Source of the DNA: Alphaproteobacteria bacterium
GTDB lineage: Bacteria; Pseudomonadota; Alphaproteobacteria; CBDDJK01
Direction of reading: 5' to 3'
Assembly (NCBI GenBank): GCA_965229675.1
Contig: OZ245897.1
Span: 1,185,127-1,249,126, forward strand
Length of the DNA: 64,000 nt
Positions 11,424 through 64,000 of the stretch are shown here, in pieces. The translations under genes and the position numbers were made by a program. The notes below the pieces were generated by a model. The model worked only from the letters and a program-made list of their open reading frames with translations. It was not told where the DNA came from and did no database searches. Positions within the stretch are counted from its first letter, which is position 1. Each line of letters begins with the position of its first letter.

Positions 11424-11942
11424 TTAATCAAATTCAGGGCGTGCCAAGGGCGGGCGTGGCCATGCCAAAACAGCATCTTTAATCACTTCAAACCACAAGG
11501 TCATTTGCGCTTGATCAATTTCTTCCACTGGTTTTATAAATGCTTCATCTATTAGATTCAAATGACTGCGAATCAATTCTGCTTGTAAATTAAACCATGG
11601 AGCTGGCACCCGATCAAATGCAATTGCTTTTTTACCTGGTTCTAGCGAAGCCCATTTAATCTCACTGCCATGTAGGGTAGGAGGCGGTAAGGCTTTACTT
11701 TCCATTCGTTCCACCGATTGCAAGATAAAATCATGCATCGCATCACGAAAAGCAGTATATTGTGGCTTGATTAATTCTTCCCATTCGGGTTGTTCTTGTG
11801 CGCGTTTGTGAAGGGTTTTACTGATCACTTCAAGGCGTAAATATTCTGCTAAATCCACCTGTTCTTCTGCATTAGTGGTGTCATTCACAAAAGATAATAG
11901 CAACATTACAGCTATTAACTTATAAAATTTAATCTTTATCAT
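11424..11942 (-). CDS. Hypothetical exported protein with an N-terminal signal peptide
   Basis: 172 aa starting MIKIKFYKLIAVMLLLSFVNDTTNA. Its ATG overlaps the TGA of the hydrolase gene fragment (ATGA). The first 8 codons are duplicated at 14718-14741. Confidence 0.5.
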   Translation of the reverse strand: MIKIKFYKLIAVMLLLSFVNDTTNAEEQVDLAEYLRLEVISKTLHKRAQEQPEWEELIKPQYTAFRDAMHDFILQSVERMESKALPPPTLHGSEIKWASLEPGKKAIAFDRVPAPWFNLQAELIRSHLNLIDEAFIKPVEEIDQAQMTLWFEVIKDAVLAWPRPPLARPEFD

Positions 11943-12275
11943 GGTATTTCATTTCCTAAAAAATCAATGATTGGCTTAATTTGATCCTCGTAAAACAAAG
12001 AAGGCGCATGCCCACAACCATCCAATGCTAAATAGCGCACTTTATACCCTGTCTCAACCATTTTACATGCTGTTTCATTCGATAATAAATCTGATTCGAT
12101 CCCACGAATCAACAAGATAGGCATGGTTGCATGTTTCCAAAATGGCCATAGATCAAGATCACTTTTCGCTAAATCTTTAAAATTATCTGAAAGTGCAGGA
12201 TCATAACTGCGAACATAACCGCCATCAGGATGTGGTTTAAGGCTAATCTCAGCTATAAATTTCCAGTCTTCATCG
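11920..12275. repeat. Copy 1 of a 356-bp direct repeat (about 95% identical to 14719-15074)
   Basis: Aligned by eye, the two copies sit at a constant offset of 2799 bp from 11920/14719 to 12275/15074 with a handful of mismatches, then diverge. Confidence 0.85.
11939..12275 (-). pseudogene. 3' fragment of the alpha/beta-hydrolase gene (truncated duplicate of 14738-15074)
   Basis: The 61-aa ORF MPILLIRGIESDLLSNETACKMVETGYKVRYLALDGCGHAPSLFYEDQIKPIIDFLGNEIP is nearly identical to the C-terminus of the 296-aa hydrolase at 14738-15628. DNA identity extends over about 356 bp. Confidence 0.85.
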
Positions 12276-12376
12276 ACAGCACATACGCACCAAGAATATC
12301 TGATTTGTCGGCATCTTAGACGAAAAGATCAATAATTTTAATGGACTCTTTTATAATAATTCTAAATTTTATCGCA

Positions 12377-14118
12377 TTAAAACTTAAAGTCAATTTGTAA
12401 CTTAGCGGTGTTATGTGCTTCGCTATCATTAAAACTAGGATTATGGGTAAGGTCAACTGCACCCATTAGCCTATCATTCAAACTATTAAATTTTAATCCC
12501 ATGCCAAAGATTTGTCCACTTGTATCGGTGAAATTCGATTTCAAATAAGGACTGGCGATGCCGATATTTTGCTGATTATTAGCATTGACATTGAAGCCAT
12601 AGGCAATAAGACCAGACAGATTATATTCACTATAATCATTGCGTCCAACAACACCAGATGATTCTAATGTTCCAGACCATCCAATATCATCGGATGCAAT
12701 AAGCACGCCACCGCCAATATTGAACGCCCCACTATCGCCATTGGTTTTATCGGTGAAATCATGCAAATAATCTGTTTTGAAAAATGGCTGAATGGTAGCA
12801 TCACCCGATGTCGTGCGATAGGAAATTTCAATCCCCGGTCTCAGTTGTCTAGTATTACTGGTTTCGCTATCGACCACTGTTCCATCACTTTCGCTATAGC
12901 CATCATTTTTCTTGCGGGCGAATAAAAAACCAAGGCGTGGTTTTAATTCTAATCCCTGATTAGCTAAAGGCGTAAATTTACCTTCGGCCAGAATATCAGC
13001 GAACCAGTTTATAGAGTTTGTGTTACTGGTCACCGTTTCATTATCGCGGTTTTGATTAATAGAACCATGAGCATAACCTGCCATGGCAGTAATGGATAAA
13101 TCAGGTCGCACACGATAAAGTGCATAGGGTGTTATTGACTTGCTTGTTTCGTCATAATCACCATCGTTAAAATTGGTGGTAAGGTTGGTTTCGCTATACC
13201 CTACGCTTACGCCAGCGGTTAGGCGATCATTATAACGATAATCCCCACCTAAATTATAGCCCCAAACATCACCAGAATAAGCCCCATCAGCACTATCATT
13301 ATCAACATTTGACTGATTGGCCTGCCCCCAAATTGTGAAACGGCGATTATCCAGCTCTAGTCTTTGTTGATCTGGCATACCAGTGGTATCCCCATCTGTG
13401 GACAAAATTAAATCATTGCTGTTAAATGATAATTTATTAAATAATTCACGCAAATCGCCTTGACGATAGGTAAGTTCATCATTTGCCGACAAGGAAGTTG
13501 CAAAACCTGTATTTTGTGTGGTTAACGCACCAATACCAGCAGACAAATTACTTAAATGGCTTTGCACATTATTGACCGTCACATTGGTCTGTGAACGCGA
13601 AATAGACGCAAACATATTGGTTCGTGAAGATATATAATGGGCAGAATCACCCGGAACACTACATGTTGCCGAAACGCTGTAAGAAAAATTCAAATTATTA
13701 AGGGCACTGATCATAAAACTGCTGCCCTCTTTCTCAATTGTATATGAATATGCTTGACTATCTTTTCGGTTCAATGTGAGGACTGCTATCTCATCTCCAT
13801 CATTTATAAAATCATTTGTATCTGTATAATAAATAGCTACATCAACCGAAGCTGCGCTCGAACTGTCATCTCTGGGACGCTCTACTGTAAACGTAATCCT
13901 CTCCCCGACAAACAACCCCCGATCATTATAAAAAACACGCAGATAATAATACTGACCATCAAAACCATTTTCAATAAAATCAGGTTCAGAAGTGAAGTTA
14001 GCACACCCCTCCGATATGGCCCAAGCGGGATTAGGTAGGGAAGTTACCCCCCCCCGCAAATCAGGGCGGTTAACGCCAATTTGGCAAAATTTTTCTTCAA
14101 ATGGTTAAAGCTAAGCAC
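12377..14118 (-). CDS. Autotransporter (type Va) outer-membrane protein whose signal-peptide coding region is interrupted by a +1 frameshift in a G9 homopolymer (candidate phase-variable gene, currently OFF)
   Basis: The C-terminal ~280 aa form an autotransporter beta-barrel ending KLQIDFKF with a terminal aromatic residue. The annotated frame 12377-14059 has no signal peptide. A second frame starts at GTG 14118 with a GAGG ribosome-binding site 7 nt upstream and encodes MLSFNHLKKNFAKLALTALICGGG before hitting TAA directly after the G9 tract (plus-strand C run 14047-14055). A G10 or G7 tract would fuse this signal peptide in frame to …VTSLPNPAWA|ISEG (AxA cleavage site). Confidence 0.7.
14047..14055 (-). 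repeat. Homopolymeric G9 tract (C9 on plus strand), a slipped-strand mispairing site within the autotransporter 5' coding region
   Basis: Nine consecutive C residues on the plus strand. Frame analysis shows the tract separates the signal-peptide frame from the mature-protein frame. Confidence 0.8.
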
Positions 14119-14158
14119 CCAAAAACCTCAATTTTAAATTATATTCACAAAGCGCAAA

Positions 14159-14731
14159 ATGCAGGCTATGATCAAGAAGTCAAGAAAAAATCATTTAACT
14201 AAGGTATTGATGATCATGTTCTACGATTCCTATATCAATCCATTGAATAACGCAATTATCTTTATTGTTCAACTGATAAATAATTGCCCAGTCTATATGT
14301 CTGCTGATAGGTCTTTGCAAAATAGCAAGCGCACTATTGTTATGGTGGAGTCGAATAAACTTCTGGAATTATGGCGAAACGATCCACTTACGCGTCATGC
14401 TGAAATTGCTTACGGAAATCCTGAAAGCTGGTGTAAAGATTATAAATATCATAATGCAGAACAAGGATTTTTAGCGGGCAAAGACAATCCCGTTCCGCTT
14501 GCCGAAATTTCCTATCAGGAATTATCCGAAGCCTATCACAAAAAGAGAGTGACAAGCAGGTTGTTTCAACAAAACCCAAAGAAAATATCTTGTATTTCCT
14601 TTACCAATGGCATTACAAGAACAATCTGGCTTTTATCAAATGGTGCAAGCCATTTTCCTGTTGAATTATATGATTTTAGTGAAGCCGAAAAATTGGCTAA
14701 CATTATGCAAACAGAAATTTATAAAATTTAA
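14159..14731 (+). CDS. Hypothetical protein with a C-terminal ParB/sulfiredoxin-like motif
   Basis: 190 aa, transcribed divergently from the autotransporter. The C-terminal region ISFTNGITRTIWLLSNGASHFPVEL resembles the ParB/Srx-fold signature (DGxHRxxAhxxxGxxxhPV). The last 12 nt overlap the start of repeat copy 2. The exact start is uncertain. Confidence 0.4.
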   Translation: MQAMIKKSRKNHLTKVLMIMFYDSYINPLNNAIIFIVQLINNCPVYMSADRSLQNSKRTIVMVESNKLLELWRNDPLTRHAEIAYGNPESWCKDYKYHNAEQGFLAGKDNPVPLAEISYQELSEAYHKKRVTSRLFQQNPKKISCISFTNGITRTIWLLSNGASHFPVELYDFSEAEKLANIMQTEIYKI

Positions 14732-15074
14732 TCTTTATCATGGTATTTCATTTCCTACAAAATCAATGATTGGCTTAATTTGATCCTCGTAAAACAAAGA
14801 AGGCGCATGCCCACAACCATCTAATGTTAAATAGCGCACTTTATACCCTGTCTCAACCATTTTACATGCTGTTTCATTCGATAATAAATCAGATTCGATT
14901 CCACGAAGCAACAATACAGGCATGGTTGCGTGCGCCCAAAATGGCCATAGATCAAGATCACTTTTCGCTAAATCTTTAAAATTATCTGAAAGTGCAGGAT
15001 CATAACTGCGAACATAACCGCCATTAGGATGCGGTCTAAGGCTAATCTCAGCCATAAATTGCCAATCTTCATCG
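14719..15074. repeat. Copy 2 of the 356-bp direct repeat (the 3' end of the intact hydrolase gene plus the first 8 codons of the downstream exported-protein gene)
   Basis: See copy 1. It contains the intact hydrolase stop and the ATGA junction. Confidence 0.85.
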
Positions 15075-15628
15075 CCGCGAATGCCAAATGGTTGATAAAT
15101 CTCCCGAATATGGGCGATAGCTTCATCATAATTTTTGAAATGCCATGGAATTGCACAATATTCAGCAATGCGTTTTAACGCATTCTGTTCCAAAAAAGGC
15201 CCAACATCATTCAAAACCAAGCGGCGAATTGACCAATCTTGTTCGCTTTCACCTGCCGTCATACAATGCGCCAAGGCAATCAACCCACCCATTGAGGTGC
15301 CAACCCAATCAATCTCTCCTGCAAGAACGCCAGCATGGCGTAACATAAGTTGAATATCCGATAAATATTGCGGAATCGCATAATCTGCTGAATTTGTTAA
15401 AATATCACTTCTTAGCCTACCTGCCATATCAGGGCATAGGACGCGAATATCTTTATCGACAATTAACTGTTGCGCCAAACGATCAAAATCACGGCCATTG
15501 CGGGTAAGCCCATGAACGCAAACAATAATATGCTTTGCCTCAATCGCTCCCCAATCGGAATAAACCAGTCGATGCACTCCCTTTGAATCAGGGCATTCAA
15601 CAACGCCTTCACGAAAAATTGGGGGCAT
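14738..15628 (-). CDS. Alpha/beta-hydrolase fold protein
   Basis: 296 aa with the HG oxyanion region (VCVHGLTRNGRDF) and a GTSMGG nucleophile elbow (GxSxG). The start overlaps the stop of the upstream binding-protein gene by 1 nt. Confidence 0.75.
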   Translation of the reverse strand: MPPIFREGVVECPDSKGVHRLVYSDWGAIEAKHIIVCVHGLTRNGRDFDRLAQQLIVDKDIRVLCPDMAGRLRSDILTNSADYAIPQYLSDIQLMLRHAGVLAGEIDWVGTSMGGLIALAHCMTAGESEQDWSIRRLVLNDVGPFLEQNALKRIAEYCAIPWHFKNYDEAIAHIREIYQPFGIRGDEDWQFMAEISLRPHPNGGYVRSYDPALSDNFKDLAKSDLDLWPFWAHATMPVLLLRGIESDLLSNETACKMVETGYKVRYLTLDGCGHAPSLFYEDQIKPIIDFVGNEIP

Positions 15629-17486: not shown

Positions 17487-17560
17487 TGGAGCGGGTGAAG
17501 GGAATCGAACCCTCGTATTCAGCTTGGGAAGCTGATGTTCTACCATTGAACTACACCCGC
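17487..17560 (-). tRNA. tRNA-Gly (anticodon CCC)
   Basis: Reverse complement reads GCGGGTGTAGTTCAATGGTAGAACATCAGCTTCCCAAGCTGAATACGAGGGTTCGATTCCCTTCACCCGCTCCA. It has a 7-bp acceptor stem, a D-loop AGTTCAATGGTAGA, the anticodon loop CTTCCCAAG (anticodon CCC), the T-loop GGTTCGATTCC, discriminator U and an encoded CCA. Confidence 0.9.
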
Positions 17561-30869: not shown

Positions 30870-33305
30870 ATGTCAAACACACTACCAAGCCAAGCAAAAT
30901 GTGTGATTGTAGGTGGCGGTATTATGGGGGTTGGGCTTGCCTATCACCTAGCGCATGCTGGCTGGCAGGATGTCGTATTGATTGAAAAGGCAGAATTAAC
31001 TTCTGGTTCAACATGGCATGCGGCGGGGCAAATTACCCAATCAACTTCCAGCTTTGGCCTTGGTAAATGTGTTGATTATAATTTGCAGCTTTACTCAGGT
31101 GGGCTTGAACGTGAAACAGGGCAAGCGGTAACGTTTCATGGTTGTGGTTCACTTCGCCTTGCTTATAGTGAAGATGAGTTAGATTGGTTAAAACATACGC
31201 TTTCGGTTGGACGCTCCCTTGGGTTTAATATGGAGCTTGTTGATCCACAACGTATTAAACAACTTCATCCATTTTATAAGCTTGATGGCGTATTGGCGGC
31301 ATTACATACGCCCGATGATGGCCATGTTGACCCAACCAATGTCACAATGGCAATGGCAACAGGAGCGCGCCAACAAGGGGCAAAATTATTTCGTCATTGC
31401 CGTGTGCTTAATATTACGCAACTTGAAGATGAGGGATGGCGCATAGAAACTGAATTAGGCACCATTGATTGCGAGCATGTGGTAAATGCCGCTGGTACTT
31501 ATGCACGGCAAATCGGTGAATGGTCAGGGTTGCAATTACCAATGACTTCAATGACCCATCATTATCTGGTTACTGAAGAAGTTCCTGAATTTAAAGACTT
31601 AACCACGGAATTGCCTGTGATCCGTGATGATCGTATGGTCTCTGGTTATATTCGTATGGAGCAAAAAAAGGGACTGATTGGCATTTATGAAAAAGAAAAC
31701 CCAAATAGCGTATGGGAAGAATTTTGTCCATGGGAAGCAGAAAACGAGCTTTTTGCCGCCGATTATGATCGGATTATGCCATGGCTTGAACAGGCAATGG
31801 ATCGTATGCCCGTTTTGGCACCGCTTGGTATTTTACGCGAAGTTCATGGGGCAATCTCCCATCCTCCTGATGGCAATCCGTTGATTGGCCCTGCCCCCAA
31901 TGTTCGCAATTATTGGTGTTGTTGTGGAACGCAAATTGGTATTGGTTGGGGGCCTGGTCTTACTCGTGAATTGGCACGATGGATGGTAAACGGTGCCGCC
32001 GATATTTCGATGCGTGAATATGACCCACGCCGATTTGGTGATTATGCAAAACCAGCTTGGCAAGTGTTAAAAGCAAAAGAAGATTATTGTCTGCGCCATG
32101 AAATTCCTTTTCCACATTTTAATCGGCTTGAAGGTCGCCCAATCAAGCCATCAGGATTATATGAAATCTTAAAAGAAAAAGGGGCGGTTTACGAGGAAGT
32201 CTATGGCCATGAACGCCCGCGCTGGTTTGCAGGCGATGGGATTGAACAACGCGATTATTACAGCTTTCGCCGAAATGAAGTTTTTTCGCGCATAGCCCGT
32301 GAAGTAAAAGGCGTGCAAACTTCCGCTGGTATCATGGATATTTCTGCATTCACCAAAATCGAGGTTAGTGGGACTGATGCAGCAGCAATGCTTGAACCTT
32401 TAGTTGCCAATCGCTTGCCTAAAAAAACAGGTGGAATTGCGCTAACCCATATTTTGAATGAAGCAGGACGCATTGAACTTGAAACGACCCTTATTCGTCT
32501 TGAGGACACACGCTATTATTTTGTATGTGCCGCCTTTTTTGAACAAAGATTGCTTGACCATCTTGAAGCGCATCGCAAGACATTTGATATAACGATCGTC
32601 AACCATTCTCAAAATTGGGGTGCGCTTGCCCTGAATGGCCCTTGCGCCCGCCAGATATTAGGGGCTTGTACCGATGCTGATCTATCAAATACAGGTTTTC
32701 GTTGGTTGAGCGCACAGCAAATTTCAATCTGTGGTCATGCCGTTTGGGCGTTTCGTATATCTTATGCGGGTGAATTGGGTTGGGAATTACATGTGCCGAA
32801 CCAAGTAATAGCAGAAGTTTATGCAGGTTTAGAACAAGCAGGAAGACCACTTGGCATGGTTGATTATGGTAGCTTTGCCATGAATAGTATGCGAATGGAG
32901 AAGGCTTTTAAAGGCGCAGGAGAACTGACCAACGAAGTGACATTACCTGAAGCGGATGTTATGCGTTTTGTTGATCAAAATAAATCATTTATTGGGAAGC
33001 AAGCAACCCTATCTAATCCACCAAAATGGATATGTGCCTATCTTGAAATTGAAGCGGACGGCATCGAAGACGGTAACGGAGGTGAATCGGTACTAATCAA
33101 TGATCAGGTAATCGGTTCGGTTTCCAGCATTGCTTATGGTCATCGTGTAAATAAATTATTGGCTTTTGCTTATATTAAACCAGAGAGCTATATTAAAGGG
33201 CAAGCGGTGACGGTTATCATTGCAAATAAACCACGCGCAGGAATGATTTTAGGTGACGAGGCGGCTTATGACCCTGAAAGCAAATTGCCAAGAACAGAAG
33301 GCTAA
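30870..33305 (+). CDS. Dimethylglycine/sarcosine-dehydrogenase-like FAD oxidoreductase with a C-terminal GcvT-type folate-binding domain
   Basis: 811 aa. The N-terminal is a DAO-type FAD fold (VIVGGGIMGVGLAYHLAHAGW). The C-terminal ~350 aa form an aminomethyltransferase (GcvT) domain. This is the same architecture as DMGDH, SardH and the HpbA-type N-methyl-amino-acid demethylases. Confidence 0.8.
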   Translation: MSNTLPSQAKCVIVGGGIMGVGLAYHLAHAGWQDVVLIEKAELTSGSTWHAAGQITQSTSSFGLGKCVDYNLQLYSGGLERETGQAVTFHGCGSLRLAYSEDELDWLKHTLSVGRSLGFNMELVDPQRIKQLHPFYKLDGVLAALHTPDDGHVDPTNVTMAMATGARQQGAKLFRHCRVLNITQLEDEGWRIETELGTIDCEHVVNAAGTYARQIGEWSGLQLPMTSMTHHYLVTEEVPEFKDLTTELPVIRDDRMVSGYIRMEQKKGLIGIYEKENPNSVWEEFCPWEAENELFAADYDRIMPWLEQAMDRMPVLAPLGILREVHGAISHPPDGNPLIGPAPNVRNYWCCCGTQIGIGWGPGLTRELARWMVNGAADISMREYDPRRFGDYAKPAWQVLKAKEDYCLRHEIPFPHFNRLEGRPIKPSGLYEILKEKGAVYEEVYGHERPRWFAGDGIEQRDYYSFRRNEVFSRIAREVKGVQTSAGIMDISAFTKIEVSGTDAAAMLEPLVANRLPKKTGGIALTHILNEAGRIELETTLIRLEDTRYYFVCAAFFEQRLLDHLEAHRKTFDITIVNHSQNWGALALNGPCARQILGACTDADLSNTGFRWLSAQQISICGHAVWAFRISYAGELGWELHVPNQVIAEVYAGLEQAGRPLGMVDYGSFAMNSMRMEKAFKGAGELTNEVTLPEADVMRFVDQNKSFIGKQATLSNPPKWICAYLEIEADGIEDGNGGESVLINDQVIGSVSSIAYGHRVNKLLAFAYIKPESYIKGQAVTVIIANKPRAGMILGDEAAYDPESKLPRTEG

Positions 33306-33310
33306 AATAT

Positions 33311-34417
33311 ATGAAAATCACCCGCATCACTGTTTATCAAAAAGATTTACCGTTAGCCGAGCCTTATTGGCTATCGGGTGGGCGTTTGAAATTTGAGGTT
33401 TTGGACGCAACCTTTGTAAAGATTGAAACAGATGAAGGGCTGACTGGTTGGGGCGAGGGTACGCCTTGGGGGCATACCTATGTTCCCGCCCATGGCCCTG
33501 GTATTCGTGCTGGGATCAAAACCATGGCACCATGGATTATGGGTAAAGACCCACGCCAAATTTTGGAAATAGAACGCGCAATGGATTTAGCCCTGCCTGG
33601 CCATCTTTATGCAAAATCACCAATTGATATGGCAATATGGGATATTAAAGGGCAAGCCGCAGGTCAACCGATTGCAGCCATGATGGGTTCTGCTTCTTTT
33701 ACGCCAAAGCCGATTGCCGCCTCAATTGGTGCAAAGACTGTTGAAGAAACAAGGCGGGTGATGGATGGATATCGCGCGCGGGGCTATGTCAATCATTCTG
33801 TGAAGGTTGGCGGTAATGTTGCGGTTGATATTGCACGCATCCGTGATGTTGAAGCGCACCGCCCGTCCGATGAAACCATTCTTTATGATGTTAATCGGGC
33901 ATGGACACGCCAACAGGCCTTGCGTGTGATGAAAGCGACTGAAAATTTAGGAGTGATGTTTGAACAACCAGGGGAGACACTGGCGGATATTGCCGCCATT
34001 CGTGCGCTTCATAGTGCGCCTGTTTCCATTGATGAAACGCTGGTCACGTTACAAGATGCAACCCGTATCGCAACGGATGGTATTGGTGAAGTTTTTGGCA
34101 TTAAGCTTAATCGCGTTGGTGGCCTTACCAAGGCGGCACGGATGCGCGATATTGCCTTGGCGCATGGGATTGATTGCTATGTGATGGCAACAGGTGGTTC
34201 GGTCTTGGCAGACACAGAAGCCTTGCATCTTGCCGCAACCATTCCTGATCATAATCTATTGGGGGTTTGGGCTTGCCAAGATATGATCACTGCTGAAATT
34301 GCTGATGGGGCTGGCTCTCGTGCAACAAAGGGGCATTTAACCCTTGAATCCAAAGCAGGGCTTGGGGTTCACCCCGATGAAAAGACTTTAGGAAGCCCTG
34401 AGGCAGTCTATCAATGA
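33311..34417 (+). CDS. Enolase-superfamily MR/MLE enzyme (candidate betaine or amino-acid epimerase, HpbD-like)
   Basis: 368 aa with an N-terminal capping domain and a barrel domain with metal-ligand and Lys acid/base positions (KVGG…DVNRAW…DET). It overlaps the next paralogue by 4 nt. Confidence 0.7.
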   Translation: MKITRITVYQKDLPLAEPYWLSGGRLKFEVLDATFVKIETDEGLTGWGEGTPWGHTYVPAHGPGIRAGIKTMAPWIMGKDPRQILEIERAMDLALPGHLYAKSPIDMAIWDIKGQAAGQPIAAMMGSASFTPKPIAASIGAKTVEETRRVMDGYRARGYVNHSVKVGGNVAVDIARIRDVEAHRPSDETILYDVNRAWTRQQALRVMKATENLGVMFEQPGETLADIAAIRALHSAPVSIDETLVTLQDATRIATDGIGEVFGIKLNRVGGLTKAARMRDIALAHGIDCYVMATGGSVLADTEALHLAATIPDHNLLGVWACQDMITAEIADGAGSRATKGHLTLESKAGLGVHPDEKTLGSPEAVYQ

Positions 34418-35508
34418 AAATCACCCGCCTTAATTTATGGTATGTCCCTTTAACCAGCCATGAAGCCTATCATATGGCAGAGGGTAAAAGCTGCACAACA
34501 GTTGAAAGCGTTATATTAAAGATTGACACCGATACAGGGCTTTGTGGATGGGGGGAGGTCTGTCCGATTCCGCATTACCTACCTGCTTATGCAAGGGGGA
34601 TTGTACCAGCCGTTAAAGAACTATCCCCCATTTTACTTGGCGCAGAATTGGTTGGGGTGGAAGCGTTAATGGCCAAGATTGATGCTTATTTAATAGGTCA
34701 TGCTTATGCTAAATCCCTGATTGATATAGCATTATGGGATTTGACCGCCAAGCAAGCCAATCTTCCTTTATATATGTTTCTTGGCGGTCGCCAGAATGAA
34801 AGCCTACCGCTTTATCATTCCGTAACGTGCATTGAACCTCAGATTATGGTTGAACATGCACGTAAGGCCTATGAAACGGGTATTCGTCAAATTCAAGTAA
34901 AGCTTGGCGCAGATCAAAATTGGCGTAAAGATGTTGAACGATTAACAAAGATTAGAGAGGCAATGCCAGCCGATGTTTTGGTCTATGGCGATTGGAATTG
35001 CGGTGCAGATAAGCTAACTGCCATTCGCGTTGGTCGCGCGGTTCGCCATCTTGATATTATGTTGGAACAGCCTTGCGAAACAATCGAACAATGCGCTGAT
35101 GTTCGTAACGCAACAGGCCTTGCCATGAAATTTGATGAAAATGCGCATGATATTCCAAGCCTGTTAAAAGCAAGCCAGCTAGGTTGTATGGATGCAGTTG
35201 CGATTAAAACGTCCAAATTCGGTGGAATCAGCCGTGTGCGGCGTGCGCGTGATCTTTGCGTTGAGCTTGGTGTTAAATTATGTATTGAAGACACATGGGG
35301 TAGCGACATTGCCACAGCCGCCGCCCTGCATCTTGCCACCGCTACCCCAGCAAAATTTATTTTGAATGTATGCGATTTATCGCATTATGTCAGCCCACGC
35401 TTGGATGAGGCCGCACCAACCCGCCATCAAGGGCGCATTACCCCACCGCAAGGGATTGGGCTTGGCGTTACCCCACAGCTTTCTAATCCTGAAATTGTCA
35501 TTGAATAG
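34414..35508 (+). CDS. Second enolase-superfamily MR/MLE paralogue
   Basis: 364 aa with the same fold, and divergent rather than a recent duplicate. Confidence 0.7.
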   Translation: MKITRLNLWYVPLTSHEAYHMAEGKSCTTVESVILKIDTDTGLCGWGEVCPIPHYLPAYARGIVPAVKELSPILLGAELVGVEALMAKIDAYLIGHAYAKSLIDIALWDLTAKQANLPLYMFLGGRQNESLPLYHSVTCIEPQIMVEHARKAYETGIRQIQVKLGADQNWRKDVERLTKIREAMPADVLVYGDWNCGADKLTAIRVGRAVRHLDIMLEQPCETIEQCADVRNATGLAMKFDENAHDIPSLLKASQLGCMDAVAIKTSKFGGISRVRRARDLCVELGVKLCIEDTWGSDIATAAALHLATATPAKFILNVCDLSHYVSPRLDEAAPTRHQGRITPPQGIGLGVTPQLSNPEIVIE

Positions 35509-35518
35509 GTAGGCAATA

Positions 35519-36877
35519 ATGACCTTAGATTTAACAAATTATCCAACTGAAAATCCTGAATGGGTTGCTGAAACGCACGCTAATCATTATCTGCAAAGCT
35601 GGTCAAAACAAGGTGGAAAGCCACTGGTGATTACGGGGGGGAGTGGTTCTTGGTTTTGGGATCATACAGGCAAACGCTATCTTGATTTTCAATCCCAACT
35701 GGTGAATATGAATCTTGGTCACCAACATCCTAAAATCATTCAAGCGATTAAAGAACAAGCTGATCGCTTATGTTATATTGGACCTGCCATGGGTTCAGAT
35801 GTGCGTTCTGAACTTGCCGCTTTGATGACGGAGATCACGCCGTCAAACCTCACCTCAACCTTTTTCACAACGGGCGGTGCGGCCGCAAATGAATTAGCCA
35901 TTCGTCTTGCCCGTCATTATACAGGACGCAATAAAATTATTGCCCGCTATCGTTCTTATCATGGGGCAACGGGCGGGGCGTTAAGTCTTAGTGGGGATCC
36001 ACGCCATCATCTAACCCGTGTTGATATGCCAGGGGTTGTGCGGATGCTGGATCCTTATTGTTACCGCTGTCCGATGAACCACCGTAAACCTGCTGATTGT
36101 CCTGTTTGTTCAGGCGAACCGCATTTGGAAGAATTATTACAATATGAAAATCCGCAAACTGTTGCCGCTATTATTATTGAAACGGTGGTTGGCACAAACG
36201 GGATTATTGTTCCCCCTGATGGCTATTTACAATCAATTCGCAAAACCTGTGATAAATATGGGATTTTGATGATTACCGATGAAATTATGGCAGGGTTTGG
36301 CCGCACAGGCAAATGGTTTGCGGTTGATCATTGGGGGATTGAACCTGATATTTTAACTTCGGCGAAAGGTATTAATTCTGGTTACGTACCACTTGGAACG
36401 ATGAGCGTATCAGAAACATTAGCGCATTGGCTTAAAGATCATCAATTGCCAGGTGGTTTGACCTATGCAGGGCATCCGCTAGCCTGTGCATCAGGTGTTG
36501 CGGCTATTCGTGCTATGGCGGAAGAAGGAACCCTTGAACATGCAACCAAGATGGGGGATTTGATGCGTAAGGAATTAAAAAAACTTGCAAAGCACCATCC
36601 TTCCATCGGGGATATTCGTGGACTTGGTCTGTTTAACGGAATTGAATTGGTCAAAGATCATAAAGAGCGAACACCGCTAGTTCCCTTTGCCGCCAAGGGT
36701 GCCACAGCCGAACCCATGACAAAATTAATGGCAGCTGCCATGGATAAAGGGCTTTATTTAAGCGGATTTTCCAATGTAATACGCCTAACCCCACCTTTGA
36801 ATATTACAAAAGTAGATTTAATGACGGGACTTAGCATTTTAGATGATGTGCTAACCATTGCAGATGAATATATTTAA
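35519..36877 (+). CDS. Class-III (omega) PLP-dependent aminotransferase
   Basis: 452 aa with the fold-type-I class III pattern, DEIMAGFGRTGKWFA (PLP Asp and the Lys region TSAKG). Confidence 0.8.
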   Translation: MTLDLTNYPTENPEWVAETHANHYLQSWSKQGGKPLVITGGSGSWFWDHTGKRYLDFQSQLVNMNLGHQHPKIIQAIKEQADRLCYIGPAMGSDVRSELAALMTEITPSNLTSTFFTTGGAAANELAIRLARHYTGRNKIIARYRSYHGATGGALSLSGDPRHHLTRVDMPGVVRMLDPYCYRCPMNHRKPADCPVCSGEPHLEELLQYENPQTVAAIIIETVVGTNGIIVPPDGYLQSIRKTCDKYGILMITDEIMAGFGRTGKWFAVDHWGIEPDILTSAKGINSGYVPLGTMSVSETLAHWLKDHQLPGGLTYAGHPLACASGVAAIRAMAEEGTLEHATKMGDLMRKELKKLAKHHPSIGDIRGLGLFNGIELVKDHKERTPLVPFAAKGATAEPMTKLMAAAMDKGLYLSGFSNVIRLTPPLNITKVDLMTGLSILDDVLTIADEYI

Positions 36878-40062: not shown

Positions 40063-41643
40063 TTACTCAGCCGTGCCTAATTCAGCTTTACGGTTTTTAA
40101 TATATTCCTGCAATTTTCCATCAATCATTGAATCCAATTCAGGGGCTTGATAGGTTTCAAGTGCCTGCTTCCATGCCTTATTTGCACGCGTACTCATATC
40201 AAGCTCACCTTCTTGTAGCCATTGTTCATAGCTATTATGATCCATCAAAGGCGAACGATAAAAAGCAGACTCAAAGTTACGAAGCGTATGATTGCATCCA
40301 AGATAATGACTGCCAGGACCAACCTCTTCAATTGCATCCATTGCCTGCCCTTCTTCCGTAAAATCAGGGCCATTAGCAAAGCGTACCATCATCGCTGCTT
40401 GATCAGCATCCATCATAAATTTTTCATAACTCATCACCAGCCCGCCTTCCAGCCAGCCTGCGGTATGTAGCATGAAATTCACGCCGCCTAATAATGCAGT
40501 TTGTAGCGTATTTGCAGATTCAAATGCAGCTTGTGCATCAGGAATTTTTGAACCACATAACCCACCACCAGAACGAAATGGAATGCCAAGACGGCGTGCA
40601 AGCTGTCCTGCGCCATAAAGCACCCATGACGCTTCAGGTGTACCAAAAGTTGGTGCGCCTGATTGCATTGAAATTGAGGCCGCAAATGTTCCAAACACCA
40701 CGGGCGCACCTTTTCGAACAATTTGGGTAAGTGCCGCCCCACTTAAAACTTCTGCATAGATTTGAGCAAGCGTGCCTGCGGCGGTTACAGGACTCATCGC
40801 CCCTGAAAGAATAAAGGGGGAGACAACACAGGCTTGATTATTGCGCGCATAAACTTTTAATGCGCCAAGCATCATATTATCCCACACCATCGGACTGTTG
40901 GCATTGATCAAGTTTAACATCACACAATTTTGATCAACAAAGTCTTCACCAAAGACAATTTTACAAAGTTCAACGCTATCTTGCGCGCGTTCAGGAGCCG
41001 TCACTGACCCCATGAATGGCTTATCACTGTAACGAATATGCGAATAAACCATATCAAGATGGCGGACATTCACAGGAATATCAACAGGTTCGCAAACCGT
41101 TCCCCCTGAATGTTGCAATCCGGGGGAGAGATAAGCAAGTTTCACAAAATTTTCAAAATCTTTAAGGGTGGCATAACGCCGTCCTCCATCTAAGTCCCTT
41201 ACAAAAGGTGGACCATAGGCTGGCACAAGTACAATATGCTCCCCACCAATCATCACGGAACGTTGCGGGTTTCGGGCATGTTGCATAAATTCCTTGGGTG
41301 CATTATCTTGAATCAGGCTTTGGCAAAGCCCTTCAGGAAAACAAACGCGCGAGCCATTAACCTTACATCCCGCATCGCTGAGTAGGCTTAAAACTTCTTC
41401 ATCTTCACGAAAATCAATGCCATATTGGCTTAAAATTCGATTGGCATTGCCTTCAATCTGATCAAGCTGGGCTTCAGTTAATAAAGTAAAAGGTTCAAAT
41501 TGACGTTTAACAATCGCTCCGCCACTGGCGGCAGCCTTTGCTGTTTCTTGACGCGCAGCTTGACGTCCTGCTCTTCCGCCACCAGAGCGTCCCCCACCAG
41601 CACGGCGTTTCGTTTCAGCATGTTCACTCGATTGTTGTTCCAT
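40063..41643 (-). CDS. MttB-superfamily methyltransferase (non-pyrrolysine; quaternary-amine:corrinoid/THF methyltransferase-like)
   Basis: 526 aa TIM-barrel MttB-family member with no in-frame amber codon, and an RGG-rich N-terminal extension (RRAGGGRSGGGRAGRQAARQ). Confidence 0.7.
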   Translation of the reverse strand: MEQQSSEHAETKRRAGGGRSGGGRAGRQAARQETAKAAASGGAIVKRQFEPFTLLTEAQLDQIEGNANRILSQYGIDFREDEEVLSLLSDAGCKVNGSRVCFPEGLCQSLIQDNAPKEFMQHARNPQRSVMIGGEHIVLVPAYGPPFVRDLDGGRRYATLKDFENFVKLAYLSPGLQHSGGTVCEPVDIPVNVRHLDMVYSHIRYSDKPFMGSVTAPERAQDSVELCKIVFGEDFVDQNCVMLNLINANSPMVWDNMMLGALKVYARNNQACVVSPFILSGAMSPVTAAGTLAQIYAEVLSGAALTQIVRKGAPVVFGTFAASISMQSGAPTFGTPEASWVLYGAGQLARRLGIPFRSGGGLCGSKIPDAQAAFESANTLQTALLGGVNFMLHTAGWLEGGLVMSYEKFMMDADQAAMMVRFANGPDFTEEGQAMDAIEEVGPGSHYLGCNHTLRNFESAFYRSPLMDHNSYEQWLQEGELDMSTRANKAWKQALETYQAPELDSMIDGKLQEYIKNRKAELGTAE

Positions 41644-41765
41644 CCTATCCCTCTTAAAAAATAATTAAATCTAACCCATCAATAAATTAAGGCAACATAA
41701 CCAATAATTCGGATAACGACTTATCCAATGGATTTTGCGCCATTATTCAGTAATAGTTGCTTATT

Positions 41766-43265
41766 TTAAGCAGAACCAGGGAAGTTTAATTGTGCGCCAG
41801 CGCGAATCCCTGTTGGCCATCTGGAAGAAACCGTTTTAAGGCGGGTGTAAAAATTAATTCCTTCTGGTCCATAAATTGGATTAGAGCCAAAGAAAGACTG
41901 TTTCCAGCCGCCAAAAGAGTGGTACGCAACAGGAACGGGAATTGGCACATTGATTCCAACCATGCCAACTTCAATATGATTAGCAAAATTACGTGCCGCA
42001 TCGCCATCACGGGTAAAAATGGCAACTCCGTTGGCATAATGGTGATTATGGATCAAGGAAACAGCATCGTCAAATGAATCTACGCGAACGGTTGATAGAA
42101 CTGGGCCAAAAATCTCTTCACGATAAATTGACATGTCTGGTGTAACCCGATCAAATAAACTGCCTCCCATGAAGAACCCATCTTCATAGCCCTGCATTTT
42201 AAAATCACGCCCATCAACAACCAGTTCTGCCCCTTCTTTCACACCTTGATCAATATAATCTACAACCCGATCATAATGTTGCTTGGTTACTAAAGGCCCC
42301 ATTTCAGCAACCTTATCAGTAGCAGGGCCAATTTTTAAACTTGAGACACGCGGAGCTAGCTTATCAATAAGCCGATCAGCCGTTTCTTGACCAACAGGAA
42401 CAGCAACCGAAATTGCCATGCACCGTTCGCCAGCCGAACCGTAACCCGCACCAATCAAAGCATCTGCAGCTTGGTCTAAATCCGCATCTGGAAGAATGAC
42501 CATGTGGTTTTTCGCTCCACCTAAGGCTTGCACCCGCTTATGATTTGCGGTTCCTGTTTGATAGACATAGGCGGCAATCGGCGTTGAGCCAACAAAGCTA
42601 ACCGCTTTAATATCTGGATCGGTTAAAATCGCATCTACAACCTCTTTATCACCATTAACCAGTTGTAAGACATTCGGCGGGAAGCCAGCTTCAATAAATA
42701 ATTCATAAAGCAATAATGGCGTGGATGGATCGCATTCTGAAGGTTTTAAAATAAAACTATTGCCGCAAACAATGGCAAGAGGGAACATCCATAACGGCAC
42801 CATCGCAGGAAAATTAAATGGTGTAATTCCAGCACAAACGCCCATCGGCATCCGCAAAGTGTAGCTATCAACCGCAGGCCCAACATTTCTGGAATACTCA
42901 CCTTTAAGCAGATGAGGAATACCGCAGGCAAATTCAACATTTTCAATCCCGCGTTGAACTTCGCCTAGCGCATCTTCATAAACTTTGCCATGTTCTTCAC
43001 CAAGTAGCTTTGCAAGCTTATCTTGATTTTTAACCAGCAATTCACGGTAAGCCATCATCATACGTGCTTTTTTGGCAGGTGGCACCTCGCTCCATTCAGG
43101 AAAGGCTGCTTTGGCTGAAGCCACAGCTTGCCGTAATTCATCCGCACTGCATAAGCCTAAACTTGCAGTCTGTTGACCCGTTGCTGGATTATGAACTGCG
43201 GAAACACGCCCACTTGCAGTATGAAACACAGCCCCATCAATCATGCTATGAATTGGCTTGGTCAT
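41766..43265 (-). CDS. mmsA: CoA-acylating methylmalonate-semialdehyde dehydrogenase
   Basis: 499 aa ALDH-superfamily protein with an MMSDH-type N-terminus and catalytic Cys (GERCMA) and no catalytic-Glu ELGG motif, consistent with the CoA-acylating subgroup. Confidence 0.8.
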   Translation of the reverse strand: MTKPIHSMIDGAVFHTASGRVSAVHNPATGQQTASLGLCSADELRQAVASAKAAFPEWSEVPPAKKARMMMAYRELLVKNQDKLAKLLGEEHGKVYEDALGEVQRGIENVEFACGIPHLLKGEYSRNVGPAVDSYTLRMPMGVCAGITPFNFPAMVPLWMFPLAIVCGNSFILKPSECDPSTPLLLYELFIEAGFPPNVLQLVNGDKEVVDAILTDPDIKAVSFVGSTPIAAYVYQTGTANHKRVQALGGAKNHMVILPDADLDQAADALIGAGYGSAGERCMAISVAVPVGQETADRLIDKLAPRVSSLKIGPATDKVAEMGPLVTKQHYDRVVDYIDQGVKEGAELVVDGRDFKMQGYEDGFFMGGSLFDRVTPDMSIYREEIFGPVLSTVRVDSFDDAVSLIHNHHYANGVAIFTRDGDAARNFANHIEVGMVGINVPIPVPVAYHSFGGWKQSFFGSNPIYGPEGINFYTRLKTVSSRWPTGIRAGAQLNFPGSA

Positions 43266-49225: not shown

Positions 49226-49936
49226 TTGTCTAGACCCATGAAAATTATTTATTATTCCAGTTTACTCTTCTATCTTTTATTGGGAGTACCTTCTTATTCT
49301 GCTGATTTTAATAAAGGATTAACTGCTGCTCAAAATGGAGACTTCGCAACGGCGTTGAAGGAATGGAAACCTCTTGCTGAACAAGGAGATGCATATGCAC
49401 AGTATAATCTAGGAGTGGCGTACGACAACGGAGATGGTGTTCCCCAGGATTATAAAGAAGCAGTTCGATGGTACAGACTTGCTGCGGAACAGAGACATGC
49501 AAATGCACAGTATAATCTAGGAGTGGCGTACGACAACGGAGATGGTGTTCCCCAAGATTATAAAGAAGCAGTTCGATGGTACAGACTTGCTGCGGAACAG
49601 AGACATGCAAATGCACAGTATAATCTAGGAGTGTCGTACACCAAAGGAGAGGGAGTTCCCCAAGATTATAAAGAAGCAGTTCGATGGTACACGCTTGCTG
49701 CTGAACAAGGAGAGGCAGATGCACAGAATAATTTGGCAAATCGTTACTATTACGGGGAGGGTGTTATTAAAGATATTGTTTATGCACATATGTGGAAAAA
49801 TATTTCTGCTTCAAATGGAATTGATGAAGCAAGAGAAGACTTAAAAGCATTTGAAAAGGAAATGACCTCATCCCAGAAAGAAGAAGCACAAAGACTTGCT
49901 AGAGAATGTGTAAAGAAGGACTACAAGGGTTGTTGA
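49226..49936 (+). CDS. Secreted Sel1-like repeat (SLR/TPR-like) protein
   Basis: 236 aa with a signal peptide (MSRPMKIIYYSSLLFYLLLGVPSYSA) and at least 4 Sel1 repeats (AQYNLGVAYDNGDGVPQDYKEAVRWYRLAAEQ…). Confidence 0.8.
   Translation: MSRPMKIIYYSSLLFYLLLGVPSYSADFNKGLTAAQNGDFATALKEWKPLAEQGDAYAQYNLGVAYDNGDGVPQDYKEAVRWYRLAAEQRHANAQYNLGVAYDNGDGVPQDYKEAVRWYRLAAEQRHANAQYNLGVSYTKGEGVPQDYKEAVRWYTLAAEQGEADAQNNLANRYYYGEGVIKDIVYAHMWKNISASNGIDEAREDLKAFEKEMTSSQKEEAQRLARECVKKDYKGC
49397..49720 (+). repeat. Three tandem 108-bp repeats encoding the Sel1 units
   Basis: The units starting at 49397 and 49505 differ by about 1 nt. The unit starting at 49613 is divergent. Confidence 0.8.
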
Positions 49937-61928: not shown

Positions 61929-64000
61929 TTAAAACTTATTGGAGCGTGGAAAACCAGGGGGGGGCATTCTTCCAGTTTGCGCACGTTTGCCAACATAACC
62001 AATCAGGTTTTTTTCAACGCGTTCGCGCTCACCAATTTTCCAACTCAGCCCATCCTCGTAGGTAAAACATTTCAAATCACTCAAATGACCATCGCGATAT
62101 TTTTGCAAACGCACCCCACGCCCTTTTGTCATCTGTGGCAATTCGGCTAGGGCAAAGATCAATAATTTCCTGCCATTTCCAATGACGGCGATATGATCGC
62201 CAATTGCTTCACGTACACAAGCAAGCTCTGCTCCCTTTGAAAGATTCATAACCTGCCGTCCATTCCTTGTTTGTGCAATCACATCCATTTCATTAACAAT
62301 AAAGCCATAACCATCATCGGAAGCAAGAATAAGCCGTTCGCCTTCTTTTCCTGTAACTGCACGCATAGCAACCAGCGTTTGATCTGCATCAATCTCTACC
62401 ATCAAACGATAAGGTTCCCCCATCCCACGCCCTGATGGGAGTTTATCTGCGGCAAGTGTAAATACACGGCCATTGCTAGCAAATAAAATTAGTTTATCAG
62501 TTGTATAGCACGGAACAACGAATTGGGCGCGATCTCCTTCTTTATATTTAATTTGATCAAGTTCAGTCGCATTTAGATGCGATTTAAAACTGCGGATCCA
62601 GCCCTTCTGTGAACAAATAATTGTAACAGGTTCTTTTTCGATTAAAGCCTCACTTGAAAAATCAACTGTAACATTTTGCGGCAGAACCCGTATTGTGCGG
62701 CGGGCAGATAATTCAGGCTGTTTTTTGTAAAAAGCTTGTATTGCTTTTAATTGATCAGATACTTCCTGCCATTGCAAATTTGGATCATCGGCGGTTTTCA
62801 TCAACTCTTCTAATTCCTCTTGTAACTCTTTACTTTCCTGTTTAAGTGCCATTTCTTCCAATTTGCGCAAGGCGCGTAACCGCATATTTAAAATTGCCTC
62901 CGCTTGCAAATCATCCAATTTAAAGCGTTCCATCAAAACAGGTTTGGGCGAATCTTCTTCACGGATAATCGCAATAACTTCATCCAGATTTAAATGACAG
63001 ATCAAATACCCTTTTAATAAATGCAGGCGTTTTTCAATATGATGTCTGCGATAAGCGATGGCGCGTAATAAAATTTGACGGCGATGATCAACAAATTCTT
63101 GCAAGCAGCGTTTAAGATCAATCAATGCAGGTGCGCGTCCTTCTTCAACCAATACATTCATATTAAGTGAAAATCGGGTTTCCAATTCACTTTGGCGATA
63201 TAAAGCTTCCATCAATAGTTCAGGTTCAACATTGCGTGATTTTGGAATAAGGACAATCCGCACTTGATCGGTGGATTCATCGCGAATATCCTCCAGCAAA
63301 GGATTTTCCTTGCTTAAGGCTAATTCCGCCAAACGTTCCAATAATTTTGACTTTTGTACCTGATAAGGAATTTGATCAATCACCAGTTCATAGCCACCGC
63401 CTTTTAAGCGTTCCACCTGATAATTAGCACGTAGGCGAAAACTTCCCTTTCCCGTGCTATAAGCCTTCAGCAGCGATTCATCATCCTCAACCAATAAGCC
63501 ACCCGTTGGAAAATCTGGCCCTTTAATGAAGTGTAACAGTTTATCAATACCGCAATTAGGATGTTTTATTAAATGTAGGCAGGCCGCCAATAATTCAGGT
63601 AAATTATGGGGTGGAATGTTGGTTGCCATTCCAACTGCAATTCCTGTTGCACCATTGGCAAGCAGATTGGGATAGGCAGCTGGAAGAATTAGTGGCTCTT
63701 CCCCCTCATTATCATAGGTCGGGCGAAAATCAACGGTGTCCTGATCAATGGATTCAAGCAAAAATAATGCAGTTTGGGTCAAGCGCGCTTCGGTGTAACG
63801 CATGGCCGCAGGATTATCACCATCAATATTGCCAAAATTTCCTTGGCCTTCTACCAACGGGTAACGCACCGCAAAATCTTGCGCCAAGCGCACCATTGCA
63901 TCATAAATGGCTTGATCACCATGTGGATGAAATTTCCCCATAACATCGCCAACGATACGGGCGCATTTTTTAAAGCCGCTAGCAGGATCAAGCTTTAATG
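61929..64000 (-). CDS. parC: DNA topoisomerase IV subunit A (type IIA topoisomerase A subunit), N-terminus beyond the window
   Basis: The frame is open to the window edge. It contains GKFHPHGD, the catalytic Tyr region, and a beta-pinwheel C-terminal domain. The projected length of about 750 aa favours ParC over GyrA. Confidence 0.7.

Follow-up and report, generated by a model that had tools for sequence, protein, structure and literature searches.

We analyzed a 64,000-nucleotide stretch of an alphaproteobacterial genome (NCBI GenBank assembly GCA_965229675.1, contig OZ245897.1, positions 1,185,127 to 1,249,126 of the forward strand), hereafter the window, whose coordinates are used throughout. 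On its minus strand lies a gene predicted to encode a classical autotransporter, in which the beginning of the signal peptide and the β-barrel are found in two different reading frames. The frames part at a run of nine guanines (G9) inside the sequence encoding the signal peptide. We present here the anatomy of this locus, its relatives and its genomic surroundings, and weigh the possibility that the tract acts as a phase-variable switch.

A frameshift inside the signal peptide

The leader is encoded by a 24-codon open reading frame (ORF) on the minus strand (14044–14118), which starts with GTG (14118–14116) and ends with TAA (14046–14044). Its translation, MLSFNHLKKNFAKLALTALICGGG, corresponds to a Sec signal peptide through the n-region (KK) and the greater part of the h-region, and it aligns with the signal peptides of homologues. 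A Shine-Dalgarno-like GAGG motif (14126–14129, minus strand) can be read directly 7 nt 5' of the GTG. An in-frame TGA sits 12 nt 5' of the same codon, which makes this GTG the earliest start codon possible. From the start, the codons run GTG CTT AGC through CTG ATT TGC to GGG GGG GGG TAA; the G9 homopolymer (14047–14055, minus strand; C9 on the plus strand) is thus read as three glycine codons in the start-codon frame, directly followed by the stop. It marks the point of the frameshift and is the candidate slippage tract.

The barrel-containing ORF (12377–14059, minus strand) is in the -1 frame with respect to the GTG and counts 560 codons from a mechanically assigned TTG start. It opens with LRGGVTSLPNPAWAISEG, and both an n-region and an h-region of its own are absent; nor does its N-terminal stretch (..VTSLPNPAWAISEG) contain a start codon with a leader of its own. 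What it encodes is the end of a signal peptide (..VTSLPNPAWA, followed by ISEG), with cleavage predicted between 14018 and 14017, then a small passenger bracketed by cysteines, a helical linker, and a C-terminal β-barrel ending in ..IDFKF. As sequenced, the N-terminal Sec signal peptide and the barrel are in separate frames, and they are found on one polypeptide only when the tract is reconstructed as G10 or G7, either of which joins both frames in a single ORF. G8 leads to a stop after five codons. The restored precursor would be 580 (G10) or 579 (G7) amino acids long, with a normal Sec leader and a signal-peptidase I site between AWA and IS; the leader measures 34 amino acids, or 28 if counted from the internal TTG. 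In the G9 state, the TAA right after the tract is predicted to stop translation, and the passenger and barrel, having neither a start nor a signal peptide, could not be exported.

Direct reading of the minus strand bears out most of what the initial annotation had proposed, namely the GAGG ribosome-binding site with a GTG start at 14118, the termination of this frame at TAA directly after G9, the barrel frame devoid of a start or signal peptide of its own, and the restoration of a single ORF with an AxA site by G10 or G7. This site, moreover, aligns with the AxA-[IV]SxGC of the homologues. The signal peptide had also been described as extended, which is wrong: the 34-residue leader is of the ordinary Sec type. 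We rejected an ESPR-type leader, as ESPR leaders are about 50–60 amino acids long and carry a conserved N-terminal motif, and a Pfam search of the restored N-terminal 261 amino acids matched no family, ESPR included, at E <= 10. A lipoprotein reading of the tract region (..LTALIC followed by GGG) was rejected as well, since the Ile at position -1 does not fit a lipobox and the homologues use AxA before [IV]S. Further upstream, about 90–120 nt 5' of the GTG, a weak sigma-70-like promoter candidate was found by consensus match (TTGATA-17-GATCAT, 9/12 matches; 14210–14238, minus strand). A promoter-consensus scan of the region returned 13 sites where 8.5 were expected, and this candidate is therefore no evidence of function.

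A G9 template might still give some full-length protein through recoding, either by a -1 slip of the ribosome or by stuttering of RNA polymerase. In the ribosomal route, the peptidyl-tRNA-Gly would slip by -1 on G GGG GGG while a slow UAA occupies the A site; the next codon would be GUA and the product would equal the G10 protein. The geometry appears to permit perfect -1 re-pairing with the stop codon in the A site, and bacterial transcription is known to slip on long homopolymers of A/T. However, G/C runs are poor slippage sites for both ribosomes and RNA polymerase when compared with A/U runs. In addition, a downstream stimulatory structure is absent (minimum free energy z-score of -0.41 against shuffles), no Shine-Dalgarno-like stimulator precedes the tract, and the arrangement is conserved in no relative, the ORFs of which are uninterrupted. 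We thus rejected a programmed -1 ribosomal frameshift site, for which the G run and the stop are present but stimulators and conservation are not, and we regard recoding by either route as highly improbable.

The predicted autotransporter and its homologues

The barrel was recognized by the Pfam Autotransporter family (PF03797; E = 1.3e-28, 100.8 bits against a cut-off of 26). The autotransporter β-domain spans 12380–13330 (minus strand); the Pfam match itself covers ORF residues 244–452, and the predicted barrel runs to the C-terminal Phe. An AlphaFold2 model built on 13 sequences, poor overall with a predicted local distance difference test (pLDDT) score of 56.6, contains an N-terminal helix, a small β-rich passenger (pLDDT < 50), a long helix at residues 162–195, and the barrel (pLDDT 65–80). 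The predicted helix directly precedes the barrel and includes a family-invariant SRSQ motif, in a part of the model where confidence is low. The best matches of the model among PDB structures, as obtained with Foldseek, were the barrels of EstA, AaaA, BrkA, EspP, NalP, and Hbp. Type Va translocators are C-terminal β-barrels of 12 strands. Judged by its predicted barrel and linker helix and by its terminal aromatic residue (..DFKF), the gene product is classified as a type Va (classical) autotransporter, with a leader that comes into frame only once restored. A Pfam search for a function of the passenger, which is about 125 amino acids long, gave no match.

Homologues of this protein are few. 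Our protein search returned one close homologue at 67% identity (P0002), followed by others at 30–46%, of which the named ones come from Thalassospira and Terasakiella and the others from (meta)genome assemblies. When the G10-restored protein was aligned with 12 homologues, its leader fitted column for column with their signal peptides: a basic n-region, an h-region of Gly, Ala, Val and Leu, A32-x-A34, and then [IV]S-x-G-C39, with A32, A34, and C39 conserved. The ancestral gene therefore read through the tract site in the 3n+1 register. In the same alignment, more than 70 columns are invariant across the linker and barrel, all of which are retained in the window gene, and no further lesion was found elsewhere in the gene.

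Long G/C tracts in the window and in related genes

The G9 tract is the longest G/C homopolymer of the window, followed by one G8 and three 7-mers. Its glycine codons are all GGG, although GGG accounts for 25% of the Gly codons in the window, and none of the 12 other Gly-Gly-Gly triplets in the window displays this all-GGG usage.

Long tracts are also present in some related autotransporter genes, close to the 5' end. P0003, which is 35% identical and the next relative of full length (read set SRR33956860), shows a C10 situated 88 nt 5' of its ATG, as well as an in-frame G8 (GGG GGG GGC) at +300 in the passenger (L082 5573–5582 and 5961–5968, respectively, GCA_054033055.1; L083 10–19). These two are the sole runs of at least 8 in 13.4 kb. 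The C10 is identical in two assemblies, which probably derive from the same data. The Logan contig of the P0003 gene starts just 9 nt before the C10, as though assembly broke at the tract. A further relative, P0004 (49% identical to P0003; read set SRR34318152), carries a C7 at the aligned upstream position, the sole run of at least 6 in its 7.9-kb contig. Inspection by eye of the surroundings of the upstream C runs in P0003, P0004, and the Thalassospira-type loci revealed no convincing shared promoter architecture.

To place these cases in the context of the family, we surveyed 30 de-duplicated family loci, the window itself excluded, in a zone from -250 to +350 of the autotransporter start. 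With start codons that are approximate and loci that are phylogenetically related, G/C runs of at least 7 were 11-fold denser in this zone than elsewhere in the same loci (5 versus 4; binomial p = 8.5e-4), and runs of at least 8 numbered two in the zone and none elsewhere (p = 0.01). The same zone around 58 neighbouring gene starts (32.5 kb) held no G/C run of at least 7. Related autotransporters seem to share the tendency, mostly by way of a poly-C about 90 nt 5' of the start codon.

Other repetitive sequences came to light in the course of this work. In parC, a G8 at 61957–61964 (C8 on the coding strand) is found in frame 36 nt before the stop, where it specifies the three prolines (PPP) in the conserved C-terminus of the protein. 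G/C runs of this length are unusual in an essential gene, and this one can usefully serve as an internal check on how homopolymers were called. A Sel1-repeat gene (49226–49936) contains 108-bp tandem repeats (49375–49732) with 85–92% DNA identity, and is another potentially length-variable gene. Among the parC-flank loci, a Defluviicoccus metagenome-assembled genome (L065 3145–3350) exhibits a block of 7–16 nt G/C runs beside an N run, which looks like a scaffolding or low-complexity artefact and was excluded from the background estimate for these loci.

Reliability of the tract length

A miscall of this long homopolymer in the consensus or assembly would offer a simple account of the broken frame: the true tract, or the mode of the population, would be G10, and the gene would be intact. 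The break falls at the longest G/C run of the window, and the source assembly is a single contig of 2.47 Mb, listed with 2,467,266 bp in the protein database. Contigs from a sample holding sister strains bear long-read-style names with coverage tags, and one of them has an evident frameshift error in ileS. Nanopore read-level calling of 8–9-mers, cytosines especially, is imperfect, and runs of 10 or more are still problematic (PMC9262707).

On the other hand, the autotransporter is the only broken gene among the roughly 55 ORFs of the window. We used Pfam to check every overlapping or abutting same-strand ORF pair, together with most of the other ORFs, and the checked pairs all proved to be distinct, intact genes. 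Similarly, a census found about 30 homopolymers (A/T of at least 7, G/C of at least 6) inside intact ORFs, all in frame and including an A8, a T8, and the C8 of parC. Two G/C 7-mers in housekeeping genes had the same length in a metagenomic strain that is 96–98.6% identical. Widespread homopolymer error was accordingly rejected, and with no other broken gene and some 30 homopolymers in frame, the assembly is not generally error-prone. A single error at the G9 itself may yet have occurred, though we consider it rather improbable that it explains the broken frame. Even then, a G10 in the leader would remain prone to slippage; the sequenced state would become ON, while the nature of the locus would be unchanged.

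A strain-specific cassette between direct repeats

The autotransporter gene resides in a small, repeat-flanked cassette together with a gene of a plasmid type. This strain-specific cassette (12276–14715; 2,440 bp) holds only the frameshifted autotransporter and, divergent from it, a gene with a PFIN (plasmid fertility inhibition factor) domain. The direct repeats on its two sides are 359 bp long and 94.7% identical without gaps. In copy A (11917–12275), the 3' end of an alpha/beta-hydrolase gene is duplicated in truncated form (a 61-amino-acid ORF at 11939–12124), together with the start of a 172-amino-acid gene. Copy B (14716–15074) comprises the 3' end of the alpha/beta-hydrolase gene in its intact version (14738–15628, minus strand) and repeats the first 8 codons of the 172-amino-acid gene. 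The PFIN gene (14159–14731, plus strand; PF22162, E = 2.5e-34) has its domain only from residue 60, and its true start is therefore probably Met47 (~14297), which would give the two divergent genes a shared upstream region of ~180 bp. Here, this PFIN-type plasmid gene sits in a chromosome. In a plasmid collection, the cassette had no DNA match and the autotransporter protein recovered only a remote Azospirillum barrel, the PFIN protein not being among the queries.

Two sister-strain contigs, L084 and L120, were recovered by means of ileS and the hydrolase, and neither carries the cassette. L120 (10001–11406), a metagenomic relative with 94.4% identity, presents the empty site: the hydrolase gene is directly followed by the 172-amino-acid gene, and the neighbours are the same on both sides. 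The autotransporter is therefore a strain-specific accessory gene. The three versions of the repeat (copy A, copy B, and L120) are roughly equidistant, at 92–95%. The cassette may have entered through a single crossover with a circular molecule that bore a homologous stretch of 359 bp, or it may be an older insertion that was later lost from the relative by recombination between the repeats.

This strain-specific cassette, which the initial annotation had overlooked, lends weight to a less elaborate explanation, according to which a recently acquired accessory autotransporter is decaying as a pseudogene after losing one base from a homopolymer that had arisen by chance; the tract would be mutable, yet switching would not be maintained by selection. 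The gene indeed lies in a 2.4-kb cassette between 359-bp direct repeats that is absent from the related population, and a G9 arising by chance is not rare. Degradation is also evident in the only close homologue, P0002, which comes from the sample that also holds the sister strains and whose 5' end has been replaced by insertion-sequence remnants. IS3-type (rve) genes and a frameshifted transposase remnant precede it (L001 3319–4835), the latter running into the called start, and the first ~25 residues of the called protein (514 amino acids) come from the transposase region in another frame. This copy is consequently without a signal peptide and, its 5' end having been lost to insertion-sequence debris, is uninformative on the tract. 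Many capC/capD copies of Campylobacter were concluded to have undergone lineage-specific decay and not phase variation (PMC7168839).

Several features of the window gene argue against decay. There is no second lesion in 1.7 kb, and the ribosome-binding site, start, leader, and cleavage site are intact; the exclusive use of GGG is unusual, and relatives have tracts at the same end of the gene. The flanking repeats differ by 5.3%, and if they were identical at insertion, the ORF would have remained open over a long time, an argument that does not apply if the difference came with the foreign DNA. Taken together, we view a decaying pseudogene as a tentative explanation, on the doubtful side. Jointly, the two mundane explanations, decay and miscall, account for about half of the probability.

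Comparison with the sister strains brought up further differences. Collinearity with the window ends at one and the same point in both L084 (19809; 96–98.6% identity) and L120 (7083; 94.4%), corresponding to window position ~18547, between truA and an EamA gene. This point is a rearrangement breakpoint relative to the sister populations, and a tRNA-Gly(CCC) gene (17487–17560) is located ~1 kb from it, beyond the EamA gene. L084 carries a 1.2-kb insertion with two small genes (12889–14124) between ileS and lspA, which is not in the window. In the same contig, a one-base insertion (11940) splits the essential ileS into parts of 651 and 326 amino acids, probably an assembly error at 9.7x coverage.

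A candidate phase-variable surface protein

The reading that we favour is that the tract is prone to slippage and makes expression of the autotransporter stochastic and reversible, the sequenced state being OFF; on the sequence evidence, we put its chance at a little under even. Such phase variation is plausible, and it gains indirect backing from the codon choice and from the G/C tracts at the 5' ends of related autotransporters. The frame geometry, the ancestral register, the intact remainder of the gene, and the tendency of the family are the observations from which it starts. With respect to what characterizes contingency loci, the tract has a length at which it would be hypermutable (G9, where known G/C runs are of ~7–8 or more) and a 5' placement from which it could switch the gene.

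Mechanistically, slipped-strand mispairing at G9 during replication would add or remove a G at high frequency. Cells in the ON and the OFF state would then exist side by side in the population, making this a contingency (phase-variable) gene for a surface protein, with length variation, reversibility, and selection for switching as the expected hallmarks. The tract could persist in the leader because the h-region of the signal peptide would tolerate one Gly more or fewer. Beyond the window gene, a clade of autotransporters with small passengers, from Alphaproteobacteria that are marine and probably surface-associated, might be run as contingency genes. The G/C switches among them would have shifted between the promoter (at about -90, C10 in P0003 and C7 in P0004) and the coding region (the G9 in the leader and the G8 of P0003). 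We offer this as a speculation that may well prove incorrect.

On/off switching of surface proteins by homopolymers is textbook knowledge for Neisseria, Haemophilus, Campylobacter, Helicobacter, and Bordetella, and is usually interpreted as adaptive in the face of host immunity. In Helicobacter pylori, oipA, hopZ, and sabA carry CT dinucleotide repeats in the region encoding the signal peptide. As proposed here, the repeat lies in the leader, a change of frame abolishes the export of an otherwise intact outer-membrane protein, and the leader tolerates changes in length. Differences lie in the type of repeat, a dinucleotide, in the proteins, which are porin-like members of the Hop family and not autotransporters, and in the organism, a host-restricted pathogen.

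CapC and CapD of Campylobacter jejuni and C. coli are likewise autotransporters of type Va, in which the barrel is conserved and the passenger divergent (PMC7168839). The poly-G/C tract is located either upstream, in the putative promoter, as in capC (compare P0003 and P0004), or in the coding sequence, as in capD (compare the window gene), with lengths in capC from G4 to at least 10 (PMC7168839). G9 is a common length in these genes, which occur in both intact and inactivated copies, and for them too lineage-specific decay competes with phase variation as an explanation. In contrast to the marine alphaproteobacterium studied here, Campylobacter is a host-associated epsilonproteobacterium with documented genome-wide poly-G contingency loci, and CapC and CapD have no detectable sequence relationship to the window gene beyond the Pfam barrel.

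In Neisseria meningitidis, NalP and MspA are also switched by frame changes at a G/C tract within the coding sequence; the nalP tract ranges from C6 to C15 (PMC3723659), and NalP, which is ON at C7, C10, and C13, shares the 3n+1 rule with the window gene (PMC3723659; PMC5953494). Furthermore, recombination between the repeats on either side often removes nalP (PMC3723659; PMC5953494), and the cassette described here is bracketed by direct repeats that would permit such loss. For NalP/MspA, length variation (6–15) and ON/OFF expression were demonstrated by sizing and immunoblot, whereas the tract of the window is known from one sequence alone. The passengers differ too, a subtilisin-like protease there and a domain of ~125 amino acids in the window gene.

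A number of observations weigh against phase variation of the window gene, beginning with the accessory nature of the cassette, the eroded P0002, and the approximations inherent in the family survey. A G9/C9 also turned up in 20 out of 100 versions of the window generated by dinucleotide shuffling (1 observed versus 0.25 expected); its bare existence is therefore unremarkable, and what stands out is its location and the break in the frame. The only other G/C run of at least 8 in the window is that of parC, and no wider set of such tracts is evidenced. Long tracts are missing from the majority of the distant family members, among them the Thalassospira types and Terasakiella SH-1, which is cultured. 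A word-indexed protein search for orthologues returned just the gene itself and the 67% homologue, its protein cluster has a single member, and scans of genome contigs and metagenome contigs with the autotransporter protein matched nothing.

The identity of the organism also bears on the question. The initial annotation had invoked a host-associated bacterium, a premise that our results do not support: nothing in the data indicates host association, and the organism is an uncharacterized marine alphaproteobacterium. Its ParC is at most 70% identical to that of any species representative, the best being the metagenome-assembled SGMAG-56 and the next Marivibrio halodurans at 59%, and comparisons of IleRS and the hydrolase point to the same marine alphaproteobacterial lineage. 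The SGMAG prefix belongs to genomes assembled from Zostera marina leaf metagenomes according to a preprint, in which SGMAG-56 itself was not checked. The window also encodes genes for the catabolism of methylated amines and osmolytes (30870–36877 and 40063–43265), among them a DAO-FAO_M-GCV_T oxidase, an MTTB-family methyltransferase, aldehyde dehydrogenases, and a Rieske oxygenase. Such a gene cluster would be more in keeping with a marine heterotroph than with a bacterium restricted to a host.

Implications

Should the tract exist in a single length only, the gene would be an ordinary frameshifted accessory gene. Annotation pipelines will label a gene of this kind a pseudogene, and long-read assemblies may misreport its state; such loci are thus easily lost or misread in metagenome-assembled genomes.

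To our knowledge, slippage-based phase variation of surface proteins is essentially undescribed in environmental marine bacteria, and our reading, if true, would extend it to them. If the switch is bona fide in a free-living marine alphaproteobacterium, or in one living on plant or algal surfaces, pressures other than those usually considered would select the same stochastic strategy at sea. Candidate pressures include phages that use surface proteins as receptors, grazers, and cycles of attachment and detachment, and the recurrence of tracts in related genes would support this view.

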